In this document: positions 9,783 through 64,000 of the stretch, piece after piece
Numbering within the stretch: position 1 is the first letter of the stretch
How the letters are laid out: each line of letters starts with the position of its first letter
Source: a virus
DNA length: 64,000 bases
Virus record (IMG/VR): IMGVR_UViG_3300025133_000028
Direction: 5' to 3' (one strand)
Position numbers and translations under genes: made by a program
The notes under the pieces: generated by a model
Database searches by the model: none
Seen by the model: the letters and a program-made list of their open reading frames with translations, nothing else
What the model was told of the DNA's origin: nothing

Positions 9783-10724
9783 ATGGAAATTAACTTAAAG
9801 GAAAAAAAATGTTTAATTACGGGTTCTGGCTCAATGATTGGGCTCGCTGTTGTAAAATCTTTGAAAAGACGTGGTGCTGACTGTATTGAAGTTTATCATA
9901 AGGACTGGGATTTAGAGTACGGACCTGAAGTTGATGACATTTTCCGACTTATGCAACCAGATTACGTATTTCACTTGGCTGGATATAACGGCGGAATTGA
10001 ATGGAATAGAAAATATCCAGCAGACATTTTTAAACGCAACGTTCAAATGGGTTTAAACATCCTTAATAGCTGTGTAACATACAATACCAAAAAAATAGTA
10101 TCAGTTATGGCATCTTGTGCTTACCCAGATATGCCCGCAGAAGAATACGAAGAAAAAGATTTCTGGGCAGGCTTACCAAACTCAAGCGTAGAATGTCATG
10201 GACTGGCCAAACGAATGCTACACGCTTATTCTCGACAGATTAACAAACAATACGGAGACCAAGCTACAACCGTTATTTTAACTAACTCATACGGTCCTCA
10301 CGACAGTTACCATCCAGAAAAAACCAAAGTTGTTGGAGCAGCAATTAAAAGAATAGTTGAAGCTCAACAGAACAACACGGATTGTACGTTTTGGGGCAGT
10401 GGCAAACCATTGCGAGAATTTATGTTTTCTCTTGATGCAGGCGAAGCCATTGTACAGACCATGGAAAAATACGACAATTTTGAGTCTCCTTTAAACTTGG
10501 GTTCTGGACAAGAAGTATCCATTCAGAGATTGGCTTATACCATATCTAAAATAGTAGGATATGACAGTAACAGAATACATTGGGACACAACCAAACAGGA
10601 TGGCCAAATGAGAAAAAGATTAAATACTACCAAAATGAGAGAATATCTTAATGTCCCAATTACTAGACTAGAAGACGGATTGTTCAAAACTATCGAATGG
10701 TATAAGGAGACATATTGTGACTAA
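9783..10724 (+). CDS. fcl: GDP-L-fucose synthase (GDP-4-keto-6-deoxymannose epimerase/reductase)
   Basis: 'ITGSGSMIG', 'HLAGYNGGI..N...PAD', 'SCAYP', 'WGSGKPLREF', 'WDTTKQDGQMRK'. Confidence 0.88.
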   Translation: MEINLKEKKCLITGSGSMIGLAVVKSLKRRGADCIEVYHKDWDLEYGPEVDDIFRLMQPDYVFHLAGYNGGIEWNRKYPADIFKRNVQMGLNILNSCVTYNTKKIVSVMASCAYPDMPAEEYEEKDFWAGLPNSSVECHGLAKRMLHAYSRQINKQYGDQATTVILTNSYGPHDSYHPEKTKVVGAAIKRIVEAQQNNTDCTFWGSGKPLREFMFSLDAGEAIVQTMEKYDNFESPLNLGSGQEVSIQRLAYTISKIVGYDSNRIHWDTTKQDGQMRKRLNTTKMREYLNVPITRLEDGLFKTIEWYKETYCD

Positions 10725-48237: not shown

Positions 48238-51200
48238 CTAGTATACATCTTTCATCTTTTCGGTAAACCACGCGGGTCCAATGTATCCAGCGTCGTTTTT
48301 GTCTATTTTCAAATTACCATCGTCAGCCCAACCTCCACCCATATCATATCTTCTAGCCTCTGGAGCACGCTGAATACCTCTGGCTATAGAATTAGCTACA
48401 ACCAGTGCAGAATAGCGGTCTTTTCTCATTCTGCCTTTTTTATTGCCTGGAAGCTTAATTTCTGGAGTATCCCACTTATCTCGCCCACTTGGCGTTTCTG
48501 TCATTGTAATAATAGATAACTCATTTTTAAGTTCTTCTATTTCCATCATACAATCTTCTAAAGTATCAAATGTACGATTATGTTGCTTATCTTGTGCTGC
48601 TGATAGTTCTATACTAACAGGGTCAAAGAAAGGAAACAATATCGCCCTATCTTCAAAGTCTTTACGAAGACCATGATTAGCGTCTGATGTCCAGTTGGCG
48701 TTTGCAAACTCTACGGGATAAACACAATGGTTACCAGAATATCCATCGGTAGGTTCTTCTTTTTCTGGATTAATCCAAGGCCAAAGTTGTGTCTCTCCTT
48801 CTTGTATCTTATCCTTATCACTTAAACCTTCAATTACAGCACGTCCACCACCTTGAGCATCGATTCCAATATGGTCAGTAGGAAATCTTTTCATAAGGGT
48901 GCGGATTTTACGACAACAGTACGAATAAAAATCTGCCTCTTGAGTTAAACCTAATTTCATCTTTTCTGTATGGTCTTTCTTATTAGTTGTCCATACATAA
49001 ATAAGTCTTCTATGTTCTGGTCTCATTTCCATAATAATAATAGAAAAATTGTCAACCTGTGAAGCTGGGTCAATTCCGTATACATATCTCATATTATGAT
49101 TACCATGTAATGTAGCATTGAACATAATATCATTTTCGCTATGAAAAGATATACGATTGTCAGGACTTACTACACAAGACTCAACAAGAGAACGTTTAAA
49201 GAATCCATCGCTATCATTTGAGAACGAATTATGAACAGTAGCATTCAATAAAGAATATGAATTATCTACATCTACTTCTAAATTATATAGTAATCCATCA
49301 TATTTAATTAATTCTTTTTCTGTTATTGGTAATAATGTTTTTTCTCCATCATTAAAAATCTTTTGTGGTTGTTTTTTTTCTGGTTCTCTAGATAGAACAC
49401 CATAAAATTCAAACATAAAATCTCTGAAATTTTTACCACTAAGTTTCAAATAATATGCATTTTCTTGTGTGCTCTTCATAAGAGACGATGAAATATTAAA
49501 ATATGACAATACTAATCGTACCTGATTTAATAAAGATTGACTCACAGAACTAGCAGATACCCATTCAGAATTTTTGATACTCCGTATATGTCCATCACCG
49601 TTCCAGTATCCTTCTACAAAACCCCTCATAAAATCTTCATTAGAAAATAAAATGTTGTGTTTTACTAATTTAGTAAATGAATTACCAGGACATATGTATT
49701 TCATAATATCAGCAACTAATCTACTATTAATATTAATAGATATTGTATTTTTTTGCTTAATATATGATTTACCGTGAAAACCAAATACTTTAAATATAGA
49801 GTCTAAAAGTTGCTTCTGATATTGAGTATCTTTATGTTCATCTAAAGCAAATTCTGCTTGTTTTCCATTACTACCAATACTGCCTTCTGCTGCATAATAT
49901 CCAATAATAAGACCAAAATCATAATCAAGAGGAACAATATTAGGTATACTATTTTTAGGAATATTTCTATTTTTTTGCACATAAGAAACTACAGCTTGTG
50001 ATAATCCAAACTTTTCTCCTAATTTGACCTGTGTTAATTTTTCTATATTGTTTCTAACTGCTCTTTGAGTTGTTATATTAAACGTACTCTTACTGCCTCT
50101 AGGATACAACCTCTGTCCGTTATATGTCTCTAAAATATCAGTTAATATTTTTCCTGGTATAAAGTATTTATCTCCATTTAATTCATTAAGATTAACAAGA
50201 TTAGTGTTATCACACATATGAGACATCTCTATAAACTTGTCGTTTTTAATCCAGTAAGGATGGTTTGGCGAAGTCATTACTTCTTTATTATATCCTAGTG
50301 TTTTATATTTTATGATGTTATCATTATACTGTCTAAACATCTTTTTGGATACCGGCATAAATCTACCTTTATGTGTCAAAACTAAGTCTCCAACTTCAAC
50401 ATCTACTATCTTCTTAATACCTTTAGATGTAGTTATTAGGGTATCAGAAGTTTGACATGCTCCATATTCCATGTTGTAGATAGCAGAGTGGTTAGTAGCT
50501 CTAGCACGAGCAATCTGAGCGTCATCCATAAAGCCTTTAGGAACCTTTTCATAAGGTATGCGTATAACAGAATAGTCATGATGATTAACACCAATTACCT
50601 GTTCTTCTTCGCTAAGATGCCCAGCAATTCTTCTCATATCACCACCACTGCTAATAATGTCTTTCCATTTTTTCCAATACTCACAAAAATGATTAAAACT
50701 ATAATATGCAGTACCAGAAATAACAATTTGGTTACCCATAACACTATCTAAACTATCGTCATACTCTACTGGTAGTTCAATCTTAATGTCGTGCTTTTTT
50801 TCTAGTTTTTTAGCTAACTCTTGAGCAGCACGTTTTTGAACGTTTGTTTTAGGGCTAGAACTAACAATAGCAAAACCAGCAATAACTCTTTCAAAAATAT
50901 CACGACTAATAGACGCAAATTCATCAGCAAGAATATCATTAGCACGTTGACCACGAATCTTTTGGCCGTCACCAATCGGCAACGCCGTAGCTACGTTCTC
51001 ACCTATAAAAACACGACACATGTCAGGACTAGTGCGGTCATATGCTCCTAAGTCTTTTAATATAGGAGCATTATTAATTGTGCTCTGCATGTACTCAAAG
51101 ATGACCTTAGACTGACGGAAAGCAGCACCACAAATAACGACCTTACGAGGAGCAGGCATTAATAAGATACGCAACAGCCCATATATACCTAATATCCACG

Positions 51201-51501
51201 ACTTTCCAAGACCACGACTTCCAATTAACATCGGAAATTTTCGATTCCACAACTCTCTAAGTATTAATGACTGCATAGGTAAAAGTTCTACGTTAAATAT
51301 TTCTGAACAAACAAAAGAAAAATATTCTGGTTGTTGCATTAACCATGTAACATATAAATGTGGATTTTCACTAAGCTCAGAAGGTATGTCCAATAGAGGA
51401 TTATATAACTTACTTTCATCTACAGTTATGTTTAACCAAGCGTCACCAAGTACTCTGTGTATATCTTCTTTGTCTTTAATATTAAAACGATTGTTTGCCA
51501 T
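48238..51501 (-). CDS. terL: Terminase large subunit, intein-containing
   Basis: Walker A 'GSRGLGKS', 'IRGQRA', Walker B 'ILADEF', nuclease 'GIDPAS' and 'KDRYSA'. Confidence 0.92.
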   Translation of the reverse strand: MANNRFNIKDKEDIHRVLGDAWLNITVDESKLYNPLLDIPSELSENPHLYVTWLMQQPEYFSFVCSEIFNVELLPMQSLILRELWNRKFPMLIGSRGLGKSWILGIYGLLRILLMPAPRKVVICGAAFRQSKVIFEYMQSTINNAPILKDLGAYDRTSPDMCRVFIGENVATALPIGDGQKIRGQRANDILADEFASISRDIFERVIAGFAIVSSSPKTNVQKRAAQELAKKLEKKHDIKIELPVEYDDSLDSVMGNQIVISGTAYYSFNHFCEYWKKWKDIISSGGDMRRIAGHLSEEEQVIGVNHHDYSVIRIPYEKVPKGFMDDAQIARARATNHSAIYNMEYGACQTSDTLITTSKGIKKIVDVEVGDLVLTHKGRFMPVSKKMFRQYNDNIIKYKTLGYNKEVMTSPNHPYWIKNDKFIEMSHMCDNTNLVNLNELNGDKYFIPGKILTDILETYNGQRLYPRGSKSTFNITTQRAVRNNIEKLTQVKLGEKFGLSQAVVSYVQKNRNIPKNSIPNIVPLDYDFGLIIGYYAAEGSIGSNGKQAEFALDEHKDTQYQKQLLDSIFKVFGFHGKSYIKQKNTISININSRLVADIMKYICPGNSFTKLVKHNILFSNEDFMRGFVEGYWNGDGHIRSIKNSEWVSASSVSQSLLNQVRLVLSYFNISSSLMKSTQENAYYLKLSGKNFRDFMFEFYGVLSREPEKKQPQKIFNDGEKTLLPITEKELIKYDGLLYNLEVDVDNSYSLLNATVHNSFSNDSDGFFKRSLVESCVVSPDNRISFHSENDIMFNATLHGNHNMRYVYGIDPASQVDNFSIIIMEMRPEHRRLIYVWTTNKKDHTEKMKLGLTQEADFYSYCCRKIRTLMKRFPTDHIGIDAQGGGRAVIEGLSDKDKIQEGETQLWPWINPEKEEPTDGYSGNHCVYPVEFANANWTSDANHGLRKDFEDRAILFPFFDPVSIELSAAQDKQHNRTFDTLEDCMMEIEELKNELSIITMTETPSGRDKWDTPEIKLPGNKKGRMRKDRYSALVVANSIARGIQRAPEARRYDMGGGWADDGNLKIDKNDAGYIGPAWFTEKMKDVY
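49228..50457 (-). mobile_element. Intein with LAGLIDADG homing endonuclease (410 aa) in TerL
   Basis: N-junction YGA|CQTSDTLI, 'LVLTHKGR', 'TSPNHPY', LAGLIDADG 'IGYYAAEG' and 'EGYWNGDG', C-junction 'YNLEV...ATVHN|S'. Confidence 0.93.
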
Positions 51502-53415: not shown

Positions 53416-54232
53416 GTTCCTTATCCACGTCTTCTGGAATTAAAAATGGTTTATCTAATTCACCGTCCTCAAACTTATGATATTCTGATAAACGTATCTG
53501 TTCTACTTCTGTAGCCAGTCTCATTTTTTCCATACGAACACCAAGCTGTTTCCTAACTTCTACGTTTGATAAAACTTCCGTAATCCAACCAGCAAAAGAC
53601 TTTTTACTATCTTCAAGCTGTTTAACTCTTTGGTCACGGGTAGCTTTCAAAGCTTGTAGCATCTTATTCTTTTTGTCAAGCATATCACGAAAATCTTTAT
53701 TTAGAGATTCTTTTTGTGAATATGCTATTGCTATTTTTTCTTCAAGTAAGACTAATTCGTCAATAGGTGCTCCTTGTTTTTTAAGCTTGTCTAACTCTTG
53801 TTCCCACTCTACTATCTTTTGGAATAACTGACGTTCTCCAGCTAATGCTCTACTCATAAGTAGTTCTAGCTTGATAGCGTCAGCAATTTGCCATTCTTCC
53901 GTATGAAATACGTCATCTCTGAACTGACTAATAATTTGACCCCAGTGATGTAGAAACATGTCTAATTCCTTGGGAGTAAACTGATTTTTCAATTCTTGCC
54001 AAACAGGACTCTTACGAATATCATATTCCGCAATCAAAACAGCCTGTCTAGCCACTTTAGGTACTTTGCCTAGTTTAGCTTGAATAAATCGCTTTACAGT
54101 TTTAGCATTCCTTTTCAAGTGGTCTGCCATTTCTTCCGGTGTGTATTCATCGCAATTATCGGCAATATACTCTTTTTCTACTTTACTTAAGGGACCACTC
54201 TTCTGTCCCTTCTGATTGCCCGCAGTGCTCAT
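53363..54232 (-). CDS. HTH plus coiled-coil protein; candidate small terminase
   Basis: N-terminal HTH 'EMADHLKRNAKTVKRF' and long coiled coil; upstream of terL. Confidence 0.4.
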   Translation of the reverse strand: MSTAGNQKGQKSGPLSKVEKEYIADNCDEYTPEEMADHLKRNAKTVKRFIQAKLGKVPKVARQAVLIAEYDIRKSPVWQELKNQFTPKELDMFLHHWGQIISQFRDDVFHTEEWQIADAIKLELLMSRALAGERQLFQKIVEWEQELDKLKKQGAPIDELVLLEEKIAIAYSQKESLNKDFRDMLDKKNKMLQALKATRDQRVKQLEDSKKSFAGWITEVLSNVEVRKQLGVRMEKMRLATEVEQIRLSEYHKFEDGELDKPFLIPEDVDKEHAENAEKVKKSLEIQSK

Positions 54233-54785
54233 GTAAAATCTCCACTATGGCTTCTTCAACCTTTCGTCTTTTATGACTTGGTACTTGAACACCATCTAGC
54301 ATTTTAAGATAATCAGCACGCAATACTACATCTAAATGTTGATTAACTATTTCTAATATTTCTACCATTTCAAGATTTAATGTGATATCAAAATCGTATC
54401 GCATACCAGATTCTTGTTCGTCCTGTACATCTCCTAAACCTATTGGTTCCATTATATTCTTTTTTGCATCAATCCGCAATTGTCGCTTTTCACAATAGTC
54501 ACATTGTTCTCCACTATTATTACAGTGTGAACACTCATAACTAAATCTAGCAAAATTATCTCTTTTAAAAGTATATAGTCTATTCCTCATGTGAACAGAC
54601 AAGAAATTTTCAAGCGGCCTATTACTATCGTGTCTTTCAAGACCATCCATACCTATTAAAAAAGCCTCTTGTTCAATATCATAAACATCAAAATGACCAA
54701 AAGTAAACTTAGGAGCAAGACGTTTAGCTATTTTTTGTATTATTGCTACAACTTCTTCCTGTGTCATACCTTCTGGTATTTTCAT
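54183..54785 (-). CDS. Phage-encoded sigma70-family factor (putative late sigma)
   Basis: Region-2 pattern 'DIEQEAFL...L.R.D..RPLENFL..H.RNRL..F.RD'; inserted CxxC-x6-CxxC. Confidence 0.65.
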   Translation of the reverse strand: MKIPEGMTQEEVVAIIQKIAKRLAPKFTFGHFDVYDIEQEAFLIGMDGLERHDSNRPLENFLSVHMRNRLYTFKRDNFARFSYECSHCNNSGEQCDYCEKRQLRIDAKKNIMEPIGLGDVQDEQESGMRYDFDITLNLEMVEILEIVNQHLDVVLRADYLKMLDGVQVPSHKRRKVEEAIVEILHEHCGQSEGTEEWSLK

Positions 54786-55219: not shown

Positions 55220-55247
55220 TTGACAGCGGGAGTAATTTCCGTACTAT
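55220..55247 (+). promoter_or_regulatory. Sigma70-type promoter (divergent arm)
   Basis: TTGACA-N16-TACTAT; a second TTGACA-N17-TATGTT lies at 55371-55399. Confidence 0.55.
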
Positions 55248-55503: not shown

Positions 55504-55764
55504 ATGACTAGGTATCGTATATGTCGGGGTGGGATGTTTAATGGTAAGCCAGACCTGATGGTAGATTACGACGGTGACCCTCCTTGCTTGTTTTGTAATG
55601 AGCCGGTGACCAGTCCGAGTACTGATGGACCTTTGATTTGTGGGTGGTGTGACTGTGGTGGCAATAGAGATGGTACTAATTGGACATCAGAACAAAGAGA
55701 AGAAAGATGGGCCAATCGCATAAAGAGGACTGACGAAATAAAAAATTTGGATATAAACCTATGA
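55504..55764 (+). CDS. Small Zn-ribbon-like hypothetical protein
   Basis: RBS AAGGA; CxxC...CxxC motifs. Confidence 0.55.
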   Translation: MTRYRICRGGMFNGKPDLMVDYDGDPPCLFCNEPVTSPSTDGPLICGWCDCGGNRDGTNWTSEQREERWANRIKRTDEIKNLDINL

Positions 55765-58616: not shown

Positions 58617-58717
58617 GAGTTTTGAAAATTGGGGGCCGGATTTTTTTTGCGACTTGCAGTCGAGTTTTGGAATTGGTAACACCTGAGTTTTAGAAATCGG
58701 GGGCCGGATTTTTTTTG
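58617..58717 (+). repeat. Direct repeat GAGTTTT..AAAT.GGGGGCCGGATTTTTTTTG (2 copies)
   Basis: Cores at 58631-58649 and 58699-58717. Confidence 0.85.
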
Positions 58718-58840: not shown

Positions 58841-59698
58841 TTTGGCACGGAATTTGCTACGCAAATAGCATGCCAAATAGCAACTAAATTCTGTCTCAAA
58901 ATGAGACGCTAATTCCCACAATCCGCATAGGGATTCTAGCCTATCGGCGCGGTGCGAATATGCACAATCCCCATAGGGGTTCTATCTTGTGTGCGTATAC
59001 GCACACTCATAACCAGTGAGAATATGCACAATCCCCATGGCAATTCTGGCAGTTGGCGCGTAGCAAATTCCGTGCCAAACTATATGCCACAAACCCTATG
59101 GCAATTGTGATTTAGGCCAAATCGGCCATTTTTGTATCCTCTGTGAGTCTCTGTGCGGCCCGCTAACGAGCGCAACAGGTTAGGGGTATCCTAGGTCAAA
59201 ACGTGTTTTTCCACCCCTATGGGGGGTGTGGTTACCTATCTTACCATACTTGCCTATATTAACAAAAATCTCATTATGAGATTCAGTTTGGCACGATAGT
59301 TGCTTGTGCATATACGCACACTCACAGCACAAAACGCGCACATACGCACCCCCTCTATTGGGGAATTGGAACAAACCCTATGCGGAATATGCGGAATAGG
59401 CATTCGACCACTAGTGTTCATTTGTTCAAATTGTCATTTTGTAAGTGTGCGGCGCGCCGTTTGCTATGCACACTTCAAACGCACACTTCGTTATAACCCT
59501 ATGGTATATATAGACTTAGGGAGTGTCATTTTCGCACACTAGTGTGCATTCCGCAACGTGTTGATACATATAGACTTAGGTCAAATAGGCGTGCATATAC
59601 GCACACTCGGCCCGCTATGTGAGAATGGACCAAATAGCGTAACATGTTGATACATATAGACTTAGGAGAATCCTATTCTGTTTGGCACACGATATGCT
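58841..59698. promoter_or_regulatory. Cluster of six sigma54 (RpoN) -24/-12 elements with enhancer-like palindromes and IHF sites
   Basis: GG-N10-GC boxes: 58843-58858(+) TGGCACGGAATTTGCT, 58860-58875(-) TGGCATGCTATTTGCG, 59062-59077(-) TGGCACGGAATTTGCT, 59289-59304(+) TGGCACGATAGTTGCT, 59450-59465(+) CGGCGCGCCGTTTGCT, 59683-59698(+) TGGCACACGATATGCT. Confidence 0.75.
59554..59652 (-). promoter_or_regulatory. Two consensus IHF sites (WATCAANNNNTTR) inside a direct repeat
   Basis: TATCAACACGTTG (59554-59566, -) and TATCAACATGTTA (59640-59652, -), each overlapping TGTTGATACATATAGACTTAGG. Confidence 0.7.
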
Positions 59699-59708
59699 AC
59701 TTGGTTCT

Positions 59709-59930
59709 AACCGGCGTTGCCCTACGGCGACGAGGGCGGCTAGATACGGGCAGTATCACGCAACACCGCCAATCGCTCCTTGACAATTCGGTAGAACGCT
59801 AGGTGGTGACATCCGTAGAATGGACTGCGGACCTACCATATGCAACGGATTAGACTCTGTGCAGAACGGCCCGTAGGCGTCCTCTGTGGACGCATAGCGG
59901 GCTGTTTAGCGTATGGTCCAGTCCAAACCA
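59709..59930 (+). ncRNA. Structured 5' leader/ncRNA downstream of the last sigma54 box, with boxA-like motif
   Basis: Nested helices 59712-20/59760-68, 59743-47/59753-57, 59821-27/59919-25, 59835-43/59909-17, 59865-73/59898-906, 59877-82/59888-93; CGCTCCTTGACAA at 59774-59786. Confidence 0.6.
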
Positions 59931-59941
59931 AGGAGCATAGC

Positions 59942-60118
59942 ATGGAACCAGTACTAGTAACCCGCGAGCAATACGATTGGTTGGTTCAAAACCATTCTAG
60001 TTGGATGTTACACGATTGGTTAAGATTCAATCGGGAATGGCGCCTGTCGGGAGTAAAGTGTTACGGTTCGTTTTCAATGTTGGTTGAGCTACGATTTAAG
60101 CTTCGCCAGTTTAGTTAA
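59942..60118 (+). CDS. Small putative early protein
   Basis: RBS AAGGAG before ATG 59942; the ORF-track start 59840 lies inside the structured leader. Confidence 0.6.
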   Translation: MEPVLVTREQYDWLVQNHSSWMLHDWLRFNREWRLSGVKCYGSFSMLVELRFKLRQFS

Positions 60119-60203
60119 CCCCAAATTTCCTAAACAGCCTACTTTAACAGAGTAGGTTGATTTGGCAGTTTAGGTAACTTGCACAGTCTACGGAGATTAG
60201 ACA

Positions 60204-60392
60204 ATGCTGGAAAGCTTGCTAAACAGAGTAGTTTGGGACAAATGGGAAGTTTTTGACCCCCAAACTGGTCTACCTATCGTCCGCCTACCCGCCAAACATT
60301 TGGCAGTTTGGGTAGCATGGGCAATGAAGGCAAAATGGACCGTTTGCGGTCAAGGCGTGTTTTTGGCAAAATGGGAAGTTTACACAAGGTGA
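60204..60392 (+). CDS. Small putative early protein
   Basis: Shared leader CTACGGAG..TAG..ATG. Confidence 0.6.
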   Translation: MLESLLNRVVWDKWEVFDPQTGLPIVRLPAKHLAVWVAWAMKAKWTVCGQGVFLAKWEVYTR

Positions 60393-60490
60393 ATTCCCGA
60401 TACCGCTTATCTTGATAAGATAGGCGATTTCGGTAGTTTACGCCATTCTGGCGATTTGAGTAGTTAACACAATTTACGGAGTCTAGTGAA

Positions 60491-60835
60491 ATGACGAAGT
60501 TAGCATCGTTTGCGTCAAGTGCGGACAATTGGGACTATGCACAAGCTGTGAAAACAGCGGAAGCTACGGCTGGCGTTGAAATGACCGATTTAGACTGGTT
60601 TCGCGCGTTCAACGTGGCAGTACCAACGGAGGCGGGTACGCGAGACCTATGGACGCTTAAAAACACAAACAAGCGCAACACCGCCAATTCCGCACAATGC
60701 CCGAAGAAGGAGCGACAACGCCACCACGAAGACCATTATGGTAAAATGGGTATTGTGGGCAAACCAGGAAGCAAGGAGAGAATAGAGGCATTGCGGCAAG
60801 CTGTGGAAGCTGGAGAGTTTGGGCAAGATGAGTAA
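60491..60835 (+). CDS. Putative early protein
   Basis: Shared leader TACGGAGTCTAGTGAAATG. Confidence 0.7.
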   Translation: MTKLASFASSADNWDYAQAVKTAEATAGVEMTDLDWFRAFNVAVPTEAGTRDLWTLKNTNKRNTANSAQCPKKERQRHHEDHYGKMGIVGKPGSKERIEALRQAVEAGEFGQDE

Positions 60836-60839
60836 CCTG

Positions 60840-61306
60840 AGTAAGTGAAATAGTCTAGTCCGCCTAGGGTAGATGGGCGGACTAGCTAATTTCGGCTATT
60901 CTGGTCGATTAGGTAAGTTACACTTTCTACGGAGTCTAGTGAAATGGCACAAGATACATTGAATATGGGAACTAGTAATGTTTTGGCAAACGGAGCAGAA
61001 ATTGTGCAACGTTGGCAAGTTGGGCAAGTTGGGAAAGATACAACCGAAACTCCCGATTGGATAGTTTTGGCAAAGTGGGGAAACGAATATGCGACATGGC
61101 GAGTTTCGCACGATGGCCATGCATATTGGGGACACTACTTCAACACCTATTCCGCCGCAATGACAGACTACCAAAAACGAGTACGTTGGGTGTTTGGATA
61201 GAATGAGTAAAATAGTCTAATCCGCCTAGTTAAGCTGGGCGGATTGGATAATTTTGGCCATTCTGGCTAAATAGGCGAGTTACACTTTCTACGGAGTTTA
61301 GGGACT
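60840..61306 (+). repeat. ~100-bp repeated intergenic element (hairpin plus leader) flanking ORF 60944-61201
   Basis: 60840-60943 and 61205-61306 align and show a compensatory G-C/A-T change in the hairpin stem. Confidence 0.8.
60944..61201 (+). CDS. Putative early protein
   Basis: Shared leader; 'EYATW....GHAYWGHYF' motif. Confidence 0.7.
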   Translation: MAQDTLNMGTSNVLANGAEIVQRWQVGQVGKDTTETPDWIVLAKWGNEYATWRVSHDGHAYWGHYFNTYSAAMTDYQKRVRWVFG

Positions 61307-61558
61307 ATGATGCGAATAGAAGATTTGCGCAGGGCTGTCAAGATGGTTGAAATGGGCGAATTGGAAGACATTGCGGTATGGGAAGAAGCTGCGATATTTG
61401 ACGGGTTTGGGCTGGAAAGCTTCAAGCCGATAGTTTGCACAATTCAGCAACTAGCATGCCTAGTATTGTGGCAAGCTAGAACATTTGCGGGGACTTGGGA
61501 CAATGAGGCAATTGCGGAAATCAGGGCAAACAGGCGGAAGTTTACAGTTGTCAATTGA
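61307..61558 (+). CDS. Putative early protein
   Basis: Shared leader GTTACACTTTCTACGGAGT. Confidence 0.7.
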   Translation: MMRIEDLRRAVKMVEMGELEDIAVWEEAAIFDGFGLESFKPIVCTIQQLACLVLWQARTFAGTWDNEAIAEIRANRRKFTVVN

Positions 61559-61682
61559 CAACTGGTAAGATAGGCAAAGCAGGTAAAATGGCATAGCTTG
61601 GCATAATAGCTAAGCTAGGCCGTTTTGGTTGTTTATGTAATCCTGCAAAAGCAGGTAGTCTAATCAAGATAGGGAGTTTGGG

Positions 61683-62039
61683 ATGATTATTCAAATTAGC
61701 CTATGTGGGTCAATTATGGTCGATGTGGAGAATTGGGCACCTAGCACGTTAGAAGATTTTCTCGACTGCGCTAAAAGCGGCAATAATGACGAGGCTTGTG
61801 CGTTCTTCTTAAGTACTTATCAACCGGATTTTACGATAATCCGGCAAGATAGGCAAACTGGAGAATTTGCGGAAGTTACGGCAACTGAAGAAGAAATGGC
61901 GTTTGTGGTTCAAACTTCTGGTTGTTCGCCAGTTGACGAAGTAGAGAATTTGCCGTTGTATATTATTTGGTTTGCGGCGCATAATTTGCGGGAAGAAATA
62001 AAGATGGCGTTTGAAGAACGGAAATGGAGTCCGTGTTAA
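61683..62039 (+). CDS. Putative early acidic protein
   Basis: Leader CAAGATAGGGAGTTTGGGATG. Confidence 0.7.
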   Translation: MIIQISLCGSIMVDVENWAPSTLEDFLDCAKSGNNDEACAFFLSTYQPDFTIIRQDRQTGEFAEVTATEEEMAFVVQTSGCSPVDEVENLPLYIIWFAAHNLREEIKMAFEERKWSPC

Positions 62040-62153
62040 GATAGGCAATCTGCGTACTCTCGACAATCCAGGTAATCTAGGTAATCTAGGTAATCTGGAT
62101 AGTCCAGCGTATTTAGATGTTTTGAGTAATCCTCACAAGATAGGGAGTTTGGG

Positions 62154-62420
62154 ATGACTGCTGTAAATAGGCACGTTGAGTTGATTGCAATAGTTGGGCG
62201 GCATGGGGACACTAAGCGGGTTAATGCCGTTTTTCACGCTATGGTTAATGAATCACAAGCCGACTATGCGTCGCGTTGGCGGGATGTCATTAGCTACGTG
62301 TCGGGCACATTGCACGACATAAAGCGTATTCAAGCGGTTCAGTTGTGGCTCTTATGTACGGGTTACAAGTTGTCAAATTGTATCATCAAATCGGTAACAA
62401 TGGGCAAGCCGGTAAGCTAG
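62154..62420 (+). CDS. Putative early protein
   Basis: Identical leader CAAGATAGGGAGTTTGGGATG. Confidence 0.65.
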   Translation: MTAVNRHVELIAIVGRHGDTKRVNAVFHAMVNESQADYASRWRDVISYVSGTLHDIKRIQAVQLWLLCTGYKLSNCIIKSVTMGKPVS

Positions 62421-62511
62421 GCAATCTGCGTACTCTAGACATCCCAGCCCGATTAGGCGGGCTGGGTAATCTGTGGTATTTGGGTAATCCTCACAAGATA
62501 GGGAGTTTGGG

Positions 62512-62664
62512 ATGTCTGTTACAAATAGGGATTTTGGGAAACATACGTATTCTGTATATGATTTGGCAATTTACGAAAAATGGAAGGAAAAATCTCTGTT
62601 AAGATTGACTGAATTTCTACTATATGCCAATGTTCTACGAGGTTTGATTAGAACAGTGGACTGA
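62512..62664 (+). CDS. Small putative early protein (50 aa, not in ORF track)
   Basis: Third copy of the CAAGATAGGGAGTTTGGGATG leader; open frame MSVTNRDFGK...IRTVD*. Confidence 0.6.
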   Translation: MSVTNRDFGKHTYSVYDLAIYEKWKEKSLLRLTEFLLYANVLRGLIRTVD

Positions 62665-62878: not shown

Positions 62879-62936
62879 CTGACAGCCTAGCGGGTAATCC
62901 TGACAGCCTAGCGGGTAATCCTGACAGCCTAGCGGG
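62879..62936 (+). repeat. 21-bp tandem repeat CTGACAGCCTAGCGGGTAATC x2.8
   Basis: Units start at 62879, 62900 and 62921. Confidence 0.9.
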
Positions 62937-63222
62937 CTAGGGTAATACTTCAAGGAAAAAATATAATATCGGGATTTATCGGCACTTTATATTTGACAAC
63001 CGGAAATTCTATGGTAGGTAATCCTCTTATGGTAGTCTGGGCAATATGCACAATATAAGTATTTGACGAAGTATAGGTAAGTAATCCCGCCTTTTGACGA
63101 AGTCAAGGGTAATCCGTGAATAAATTGCCAAGTAATAATATATTTTTCCTTGAAGATAATCCGTTGCAATGCCGATAATGTATGGTAAGCTAGGGCATAC
63201 AACAAAACAAAAGGAGAGTACG

Positions 63223-63393
63223 ATGGAATTCAGAGTTATCAAAACGTGGGCATTTGGCCAAATTTTGGATTTTGTTGGCACTTTTGCTGAGTGTCAGGCG
63301 TATTGTCGTGGGTATTGTGGTTCAATGTATACGTATAGCTTATCCATTGTGGATAATAGCGGCACAGTTTGTGATGTTTGGCAAGATAGGTAA
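63223..63393 (+). CDS. Small putative early protein
   Basis: RBS AAGGAG before ATG 63223. Confidence 0.6.
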   Translation: MEFRVIKTWAFGQILDFVGTFAECQAYCRGYCGSMYTYSLSIVDNSGTVCDVWQDR

Positions 63394-63550
63394 TCTAAGC
63401 AAGGAGCTAGGCTATGGTCATTTTGCGGGAGTGGATAATCGAGAGACGGCAGATAACCACAACAAAGGAAGAAATTACGGAATTTTACCTTGACGTGGAT
63501 ATCGACGTGATTTTGGAAATGTGGGCGATTTTGGGAATCTAGGGTGAATT

Positions 63551-63763
63551 ATGAAAAATCAAGCCAATTTGACGATTTTAGACGTAGACAATGCTTTCCG
63601 CCTACTAGAGGAGCGAATTGCAAAACCAACTACTCGCGAAGAAATCTATAAAATCCGCGAAGAATTGGATTTTTGGTACGATACGTGCTATACGGAGTCT
63701 GGTTCAATTGCCACAAAGACTATGGATGATACGCAATTTGATTTGGCTTACGAAAAAGAATAG
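63551..63763 (+). CDS. Small putative early protein
   Basis: 70-aa ORF, same orientation and spacing as its neighbours. Confidence 0.55.
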   Translation: MKNQANLTILDVDNAFRLLEERIAKPTTREEIYKIREELDFWYDTCYTESGSIATKTMDDTQFDLAYEKE

Positions 63764-63840
63764 GTAAGATAGGCAAGCTGGGTAATATATCGGCAAATTT
63801 ATTTGCAGGCTAAAATTGGGAAATAATCTCAAGTTTAGCC

Positions 63841-63913
63841 TTGCAATAGCCGAAAACTAGGATATAATAAGAATATAGCCGTGGGGGAGGCTGCGCGGAT
63901 TTATTTGGCTGTG
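63841..63913 (+). promoter_or_regulatory. Sigma70-like promoter plus conserved 40-nt element (copy 2)
   Basis: TTGCAA-N16-TATAAT, then TATAGCCGTGGGGGAGGCTGCGCGGATTTATTTGGCTGTG. Confidence 0.6.
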
Positions 63914-64000
63914 ACAGCCGCCATACCACAGCGAGAAAAACACGAAGCTACTATAATAAGAATAACATAGATTTAGAAGAAGTCAAGCACTATTATCGGA

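Follow-up and report, generated by a model that had tools for sequence, protein, structure and literature searches.

Sigma-54-type sites clustered in the early region of an uncultured marine phage lineage

Phage early transcription is thought to use either the host sigma-70 polymerase or a polymerase of the phage, and the bacterial sigma-54 polymerase fires only on contact with an ATPase activator. A non-coding stretch in the viral DNA analyzed here (64,000 nucleotides, hereafter the window) raises the question of what sigma-54-type sites might do in the early region of a phage and which factor might read them. The first-pass annotation had placed six GG-N10-GC elements within 58841-59698, taking them as an array of sigma-54 boxes at the head of an early region.

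Genome setting and the boxes at 58841-59698

Positions 1-62915 of the window correspond to the final 62.9 kb of an IMG/VR record that is 163,651 bp long and rated 100% complete by CheckV. The remaining 1,085 bases (62916-64000) extend beyond the record end. Over its last 175 bases, the window shares 80% identity with the record start; each is a copy of a TTGCAA-N17-TATAAT promoter with GGGGGAGGCTGCGC behind it, and the assembly was probably broken within repeated early cassettes. The genome encodes a terminase with an intein, a portal, a capsid protein, a tape measure protein of 1,697 aa and sugar-modifying enzymes; the intein of the large terminase gene (window 48238-51501, minus strand) carries Hint and LAGLIDADG domains. 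No cultured relative was recovered by megablast with 5 kb or by tblastn with the capsid protein against 50,697 phage records, and tblastn with the portal against the phage collection returned 19% matches at best. In public data, the portal has more than 4,300 relatives, and the window sequence is present in marine metagenome runs from about 20 studies, with no RNA dataset among the public runs listed. Thus, the phage represents an uncultured marine lineage that is abundant in public data.

A leftward block of late structural genes occupies 115.7-155.5 kb of the genome, and all other genes are transcribed rightward. The first gene of the leftward block encodes a small sigma-70-family factor (Table 1), which contains cysteine-rich inserts; at least 470 relatives of this factor occur in viral contigs, the genomes concerned measuring about 120 to 230 kb. 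The rightward genes begin at position 55504, behind sigma-70 promoters at 55220 and 55371, so that plus-strand genes upstream of the boxes are already driven by these promoters and the cluster, which had been placed at the head of the early region, is not at the very head of the rightward genes. In agreement with the annotation of the region as non-coding, ORF inspection placed the cluster within a 1.4-kb stretch devoid of genes, ahead of a block of eight small ones. The G+C content rises from about 36% in the genome to 44-45% in the last 5 kb. Two copies of GAGTTTTGAAAATTGGGGGCCGGATTTTTTTTG (repeat family D2; 58617-58649 and 58685-58717) lie between the upstream genes and the cluster; they were considered as terminators and rejected, having a T-run with no proper stem and being negative in the terminator scan. 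Contigs from 4 marine runs covering a 1.8-kb region around the cluster are identical and show no joints, except at 59348-59351, a variable spot with a C>A change and 1-nt insertions that lies outside every box.

Table 1. Coordinates of the boxes and associated features in the window
Feature	Coordinates	Strand	Score or basis	Remarks
Phage sigma factor gene	54183-54785	-	Weak Pfam Sigma70_r2 match and alignment	Small sigma-70-family (ECF-like) factor
Box 1, TGGCACGGAATTTGCT	58843-58858	+	27.4 bits	Perfect sigma-54-type site; left half of face-to-face pair
Box 2, TGGCATGCTATTTGCG	58860-58875	-	22.2 bits	Faces box 1
Three 32-nt units	58906-59047		Repeat families D1, D3, D4	Each joins a GTGCRAATATGCAC palindrome to a CCCCATAGGGG palindrome
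Box 3, TGGCACGGAATTTGCT	59062-59077	-	29.5 bits	Perfect site; inverted copy of box 1
Box 4, TGGCACGATAGTTGCT	59289-59304	+	22.4 bits	Perfect site; own spacer and flanks
Box 5, CGGCGCGCCGTTTGCT	59450-59465	+	13.7 bits	Weak match
Three copies of (GTTGATAC)ATATAGACTTAGG	59492-59666	+	Repeat family D5	Last copy ends 16 nt before box 6
Palindrome GTGCATATACGCAC	59591-59604			Centre about 111 nt before the predicted start of box 6
Box 6, TGGCACACGATATGCT	59683-59698	+	22.7 bits	Candidate promoter of leader and early gene block
Structured untranslated leader	59709-59941	+	233 nt	Between box 6 and the first small gene
Eight small genes	59942-62664	+	50-118 aa	GGAG ribosome sites

All six elements were found where they had been annotated. 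Their bit scores (Table 1) derive from a matrix built from the boxes of relatives only, with strong sites defined as those of 20 bits or more. Boxes 1, 2, 3, 4 and 6 have the sigma-54 -24/-12 sequence at 22-29 bits. Scattered background matches in the genome score 12-15 bits with the same matrix, and since box 5 falls within this range, it was dropped from the count; its match is probably due to chance, and a small terminator-like hairpin overlaps it. Accordingly, the original division into three perfect and three near-consensus sites holds for the former and for boxes 2 and 6 of the latter. The head-to-head arrangement of boxes 1 and 2, which face each other across a 1-nt gap, and the inverted repeat that includes boxes 1 and 3 (58841-58862 and 59058-59079; 22 nt, 100% complementary) were both confirmed. 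Boxes 1 and 3 are hence copies of one repeat and not independent of each other. A palindrome, GTGCATATACGCAC, follows immediately 3' of box 4.

The strong boxes are concentrated in the cluster. All three perfect TGGCAC-N5-TTGCW matches of the 64-kb window, and one of the three matches with a single mismatch, belong to it, as do 4 of the 5 matches to a relaxed pattern in the whole 163,651-bp genome. The relatives-only matrix yielded 6 matches of at least 20 bits in the 163 kb, 5 of them within these 860 bp (22.2-29.5 bits), which bears out, genome-wide, the impression that the window holds no comparable cluster elsewhere. The sixth strong site (TGGCACGATATTTGCG, 25.7 bits) is located outside the window, at G000:C1:2721-2736 on the minus strand, antisense within the first codons of a small early gene and just past a TTGACA-type promoter, with TATCGCAAATATCG repeats nearby.

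The spacing between the two elements of the box is strict, as the GG-N10-GC description implied: in the loci of relatives (1.17 Mb), the N5 spacer gave 74 matches and the other spacers from N2 to N9 gave 0-9, and the respective numbers in this genome are 4 and 0-2, so that N5 alone is enriched. Among 119 sites, positions outside the search pattern favor T ahead of GG (82%), T ahead of TGC (74%) and A or T behind GC (80%), and this agreement with the consensus at positions not used for finding the sites supports their assignment to the sigma-54 type. Experimentally bound sigma-54 sites of Salmonella include TGGCAT variants and ATGC variants of the -12 element (PMC3844500), and the boxes fall within the range of these bound sites. 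Judged by sequence, the five strong boxes are sigma-54-type -24/-12 sites and not chance matches.

Conservation and arrangement of the boxes in relatives

We fetched 80 related loci using as an anchor the phage sigma gene, which was chosen for its location some 4 kb away from the cluster in this phage and from the corresponding boxes in two relatives, G002 and G008. The boxes are confined almost entirely to one side of the anchor, with 73 in 374 kb of the early side and 2 in 755 kb of the late side, and of 30 relatives whose early-side flank spans at least 6 kb, 18 carry them; seven relatives with full flank have none. G002 has two boxes at a place equivalent to the cluster of the window, and in G008, the portal of which is 42% identical to that of our phage, a stretch of 10.5 kb contains 12 perfect boxes, all on one strand, the reversed control pattern giving 0. 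The box motif is unchanged across phages with only 34-48% identity between their anchor proteins, as well as in unrelated viral contigs. Since the flanks are wholly different between this phage, G002 and the G008 group, it is the box itself that selection keeps. Sigma-54-type sites are thus a trait of the whole marine lineage, limited to the early side and kept by many of its members. Host inference from binning gave a mixed picture: the genomes with which relatives are binned come from many phyla, with 7 of 17 belonging to Bacteroidota and the rest scattered. Among viral contigs, the exact 19-mer of box 1 has a single unrelated match (L004:915-933, minus strand), in a 12-kb contig with no other similarity; it lies in an intergenic spacer and is followed, in the next 150 nt or so, by two terminator-like hairpins, an arrangement compatible with a small RNA.

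These data bear on two readings in which the boxes would have no connection to sigma-54. It is very unlikely that they are ordinary sigma-70 promoters with TTGGCA as the -35 element, or functionless repeats spread by recombination. TTGGCA is one change away from TTGACA, box 1 can be read as TTGGCA-18-TAGCAT (9 of 12 matches), a G002 box overlaps TTGGCA-16-TATACT, and the origin of boxes 1 and 3 from one repeat would suit recombination. However, boxes 3, 4 and 6 lack an acceptable -10 hexamer 16-18 nt after TTGGCA, only box 1 passing a lax scan, and the sigma-70 reading was rejected. Furthermore, the region is not enriched for sigma-70-like sites (7 found versus 5.1 expected), the gene-proximal boxes of relatives have an AT-rich stretch just 12-14 nt after TTGGCA, and a sigma-70 promoter has no use for the conserved TTGC at its fixed distance. 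Conservation across lineages with unrelated flanks argues against hitch-hiking repeats.

Least probable of all is a replication origin, partition or packaging site with the repeats as iterons. Several repeat families are dense in the 1.4 kb of non-coding DNA, and the cumulative GC-skew minimum is only a few kb away, at 54-56 kb; this minimum, however, coincides with the switch in gene strand. An iteron origin was rejected in view of the G+C content of the region, which exceeds that of the genome (about 44% versus 36%), the lack of a DnaA box in the region, and the boxes of relatives, which are dispersed over up to 10 kb with one per gene cassette, unlike a single origin.

In the relatives, a box typically occupies the gap that separates a gene end from the following sigma-70 promoter; 59 of 79 boxes are located 8-160 nt upstream of the -35 element and only 2 downstream. 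The partner is a strong sigma-70 promoter (TTGCAA-N17-TATAAT) driving a small gene; the G008 cassettes, for instance, comprise 12 units with 10 sigma-70 promoters of one type. The gaps between box and promoter cluster near 33, 45, 56 and 67 nt. Of the 59 boxes near a sigma-70 promoter, 40 point away from it and 19 toward it, and inversion within the same cassette was seen. Such free orientation is odd for a promoter. Several boxes are nonetheless placed as promoters would be. In L277 (8708 and 5638, both on the minus strand), the C of the -12 element is exactly 12 nt before an ATATAAG leader, which in this group is also the start region after sigma-70 -10 boxes, and one box of G002 lies 42 nt before a start codon. 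The L277 geometry is the best sign in these sequences that some boxes may fire.

Behind boxes that point away from the promoter comes a conserved element, about 100 nt long, in which GTAAG/CTTAC hairpins abound. One example, L216:9825-9952 on the minus strand (L216 corresponds to G008:20001-40000), has two GTAAGT..ACTTAC hairpins around a GC-rich stem. RNAalifold gave no consensus structure for the element and it has no Rfam match. Under our own model of three hairpins, the alignment contains 460 Watson-Crick, 103 G-U and 17 A-C cells, and the excess of G-U over A-C hints at an RNA made from the box strand. Because covariation is small and one copy has an inverted hairpin, we make no claim for an RNA gene; the element could be a small RNA or a protein-binding array.

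Face-to-face pairs like that of boxes 1 and 2 recur in the relatives L248, L258 and L279, and triplets in + - + order with offsets of 17-19 nt likewise recur among relatives. Outside this group, at least 120 viral contigs show the pair pattern, many of them as arrays that repeat every 47 nt or so; by a rough estimate, chance would yield just a handful. Three or four tandem pairs with a period of about 47 nt are found in the viral contigs L330 (3466-3639), L334 (8262-8392), L343, L350, L357, L361 and L365, and these arrays are much denser than the cluster of the window. In L139, sigma-54-type boxes at 42-59 and 132-149 on the plus strand and at 10533-10550 and 10623-10640 on the minus strand lie in apparent terminal inverted repeats; L111, L117, L142, L145, L155 and L169 are similar, all being viral contigs of 10-12 kb, mostly from one sample.

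The same arrangement has also to be weighed as a set of operators for another DNA-binding protein of phage or host that regulates the neighboring sigma-70 early promoters. Such a protein would recognize two TKGCW half-sites in direct orientation, spaced by one helical turn, and bind the face-to-face pairs as a dimer of dimers, and each box indeed consists of two similar half-sites, TGGCA and TTGCA/T, 11 nt apart, the pairs being palindromic. In either orientation, the boxes keep to positions near sigma-70 promoters, and the gaps, clustering near 33, 45, 56 and 67 nt, approximate helical steps, a pattern that does not count as independent evidence because only four or five cassette families contribute to it. 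We consider operators clearly unlikely. At each informative position, the motif agrees with the universal sigma-54 consensus, and no candidate protein came to light. If the reader were specific to the phages, protein and site should drift together, whereas the motif is constant across the 34-48% identity range and in unrelated contigs.

Box 6, its leader and the factor that would read the sites

Domain searches of this genome and 10 relatives revealed no sigma-54 DNA-binding domain. No activator domain or GAFTGA motif was found in this genome and no activator domain in the 10 relatives, weak PF00158 matches in jumbo relatives being RuvB. With neither sigma-54 nor an activator found in the phages, the reader of the boxes should be a host factor, which would also explain the absence of motif drift. 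An exact, non-drifting universal site in diverged and unrelated phages is most simply accounted for by the sigma-54 polymerase of the host.

The most promoter-like member of the cluster appears to be box 6, which the first-pass annotation singled out as the promoter of the early operon. Its predicted start, at about 59709, coincides with the foot of the folded leader, the box itself lying 12 nt before the leader. The leader folds at -101.7 kcal/mol compared with a mean of -79.2 for shuffled sequences (z = -4.37), and 0 of 200 shuffles fold as well. The spacers of the eight-gene block that follows (85-124 nt) are repeated among its genes and contain hairpins; the boxes are not part of them, no sigma-70 promoter was found within them, and the next clear sigma-70 promoters lie past the block, from about 62.7 kb. 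The folded leader and a set of eight genes with no sigma-70 promoter of their own thus favor the proposed role of this particular box; as a general role for such boxes it does not stand, since in most relatives they point away from the neighboring gene. Because no strong terminator was found between the promoters at 55220 and 55371 and the block, read-through from these promoters could also express the eight genes.

Several repeats surround the boxes. One perfect TGTGCGTATACGCACA accompanies the 32-nt units between boxes 1/2 and box 3, and the (GTTGATAC)ATATAGACTTAGG copies contain no good sigma-70 match. The motifs of the 32-nt units, the perfect TGTGCGTATACGCACA and the palindromes GTGCRTATAYGCAC (five copies), the CCCCATAGGGG type and ATATAGACTTAGG (three copies) are absent from the rest of the 163-kb genome. 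Region-specific palindromes are located 80-150 nt upstream of boxes 2, 4 and 6; the usual distance of a sigma-54 enhancer is 80-150 bp upstream (PMC3844500). By its distance, the palindrome at 59591-59604 is a putative enhancer of box 6. There is no transcription unit downstream of boxes 1-3. Small RNAs were considered after boxes 1 and 3 and after box 4, and rejected: the former interval folds on both strands (z of about -3), as DNA palindromes do, and the latter has z = -0.55. No Rfam family was found in the region or in the cassettes of relatives.

We favor, at a probability of about one in two, a mixed use of sites for the host sigma-54 polymerase, with box 6 as a conditional promoter and the paired and inverted copies as docking sites. 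The five strong boxes would be recognition sites for the host sigma-54 RNA polymerase holoenzyme, kept by selection in the early region. On box 6, and possibly box 4, the polymerase would sit as a silent closed complex until contacted by an ATPase activator. The activator could be host-derived or an unrecognized phage protein, and its binding sites may be the region-specific palindromes about 80-150 nt upstream. Starting near 59709, the transcript would comprise the 233-nt folded leader and the eight small genes up to 62664. We infer binding by the sigma-54 polymerase, firing, the start site, the activator and the presence of rpoN in the host alike. The pair formed by boxes 1 and 2, together with the inverted copy in box 3, would belong to a class of paired sites common in uncultured phages. 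Since the orientation of pairs is not fixed, boxes 1, 2 and 3 are more likely to hold the enzyme than to start a useful transcript. Against the favored reading stand the free orientation of boxes in relatives, the possible read-through from 55220 and 55371, the seven relatives with full flank that lack boxes, the absence of a consensus RNA structure in the element that follows most boxes of relatives and, judging from the known footprint, the probable inability of two holoenzymes to fit on one face-to-face pair at once.

The closest competitor takes docking as the sole function: the sigma-54 holoenzyme would bind and never fire, and the boxes would be putative insulators or roadblocks separating gene cassettes, or a decoy soaking up sigma-54. 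As a decoy, replicated phage DNA would titrate the small sigma-54 pool and silence the sigma-54 responses of the host; this titration, proposed in the first-pass annotation along with links to nitrogen, envelope and Psp responses, is speculation. In the absence of an activator, sigma-54 closed complexes remain stable and silent (PMC3844500), which suits pure docking, as does the lack of an activator gene in the phages examined. The free orientation within the same cassette, the + - + triplets, and the face-to-face pairs, often in arrays of the 47-nt period, in at least 120 viral contigs point in the same direction, and the boxes of relatives occupy the position of a terminator or insulator, from the end of a gene to the next sigma-70 promoter. 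Nevertheless, we regard docking alone as rather unlikely, because several boxes of relatives stand directly before genes with the exact -12 to +1 geometry, box 6 heads a leader and a gene block with no other promoters, and a decoy needs no fixed place beside sigma-70 promoters.

Comparison with known systems

Beyond this phage, the recurrence of boxes and pairs tentatively suggests a wider picture, in which many unrelated uncultured phages might use a parked closed complex of the host sigma-54 polymerase as a DNA-bound device of the early region. Most sites could then be activator-free insulators, polymerase holders or a sponge against host sigma-54 responses, with a minority of true conditional promoters. 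If true, phages would share a general strategy that relies on a host factor and has yet to appear in print; the literature searched yielded no paper on clusters of sigma-54 sites in phages. If the sites fire, phage expression would be gated by a signaling ATPase of the host and hence by host physiology, and if they only bind, phages would exploit a parked polymerase. Either outcome would add a layer of phage-host transcription control in the ocean.

The boxes share with bacterial sigma-54 promoters, such as glnAp2, pspA and the divergent hycA/hypA and zraP/zraS, the same -24/-12 sequence and invariant spacing, and the palindromes 80-150 nt upstream of boxes 2, 4 and 6 are placed in the manner of enhancers. 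Unlike in the bacterial systems, the phage has no recognized sigma-54 or activator gene, five sites are packed into 860 bp, and two of them lie 1 nt apart, so that each predicted start site is inside the other site.

Among phages, YuA of Pseudomonas needs host sigma-54 for its growth (Ceyssens et al. 2008, cited in PMC5053324 and PMC10914365). These two papers term the use of sigma-54 by phages rare, cite YuA for it and mention one sigma-54-like promoter region. In the reading proposed here, our phage would resemble this P. aeruginosa phage in that the host sigma-54 polymerase serves part of the phage program. YuA is an unrelated siphovirus with a known host, and clusters, face-to-face pairs and one site per early cassette are not reported for it in those papers.

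The nearest model for the early cassettes is provided by the PeSL (promoter-early stem-loop) cassettes of T4-type phages (PMC2839356, PMC4122927). As in PeSL, the small early genes of G008 are preceded by hairpins and a sigma-70 promoter, and the cassettes of relatives are repeated in a variable region of small genes. Unlike PeSL, the cassette of the relatives adds a sigma-54-type box in either orientation, and the phage studied here differs from both in that its boxes are gathered in one spacer rather than distributed one per gene.
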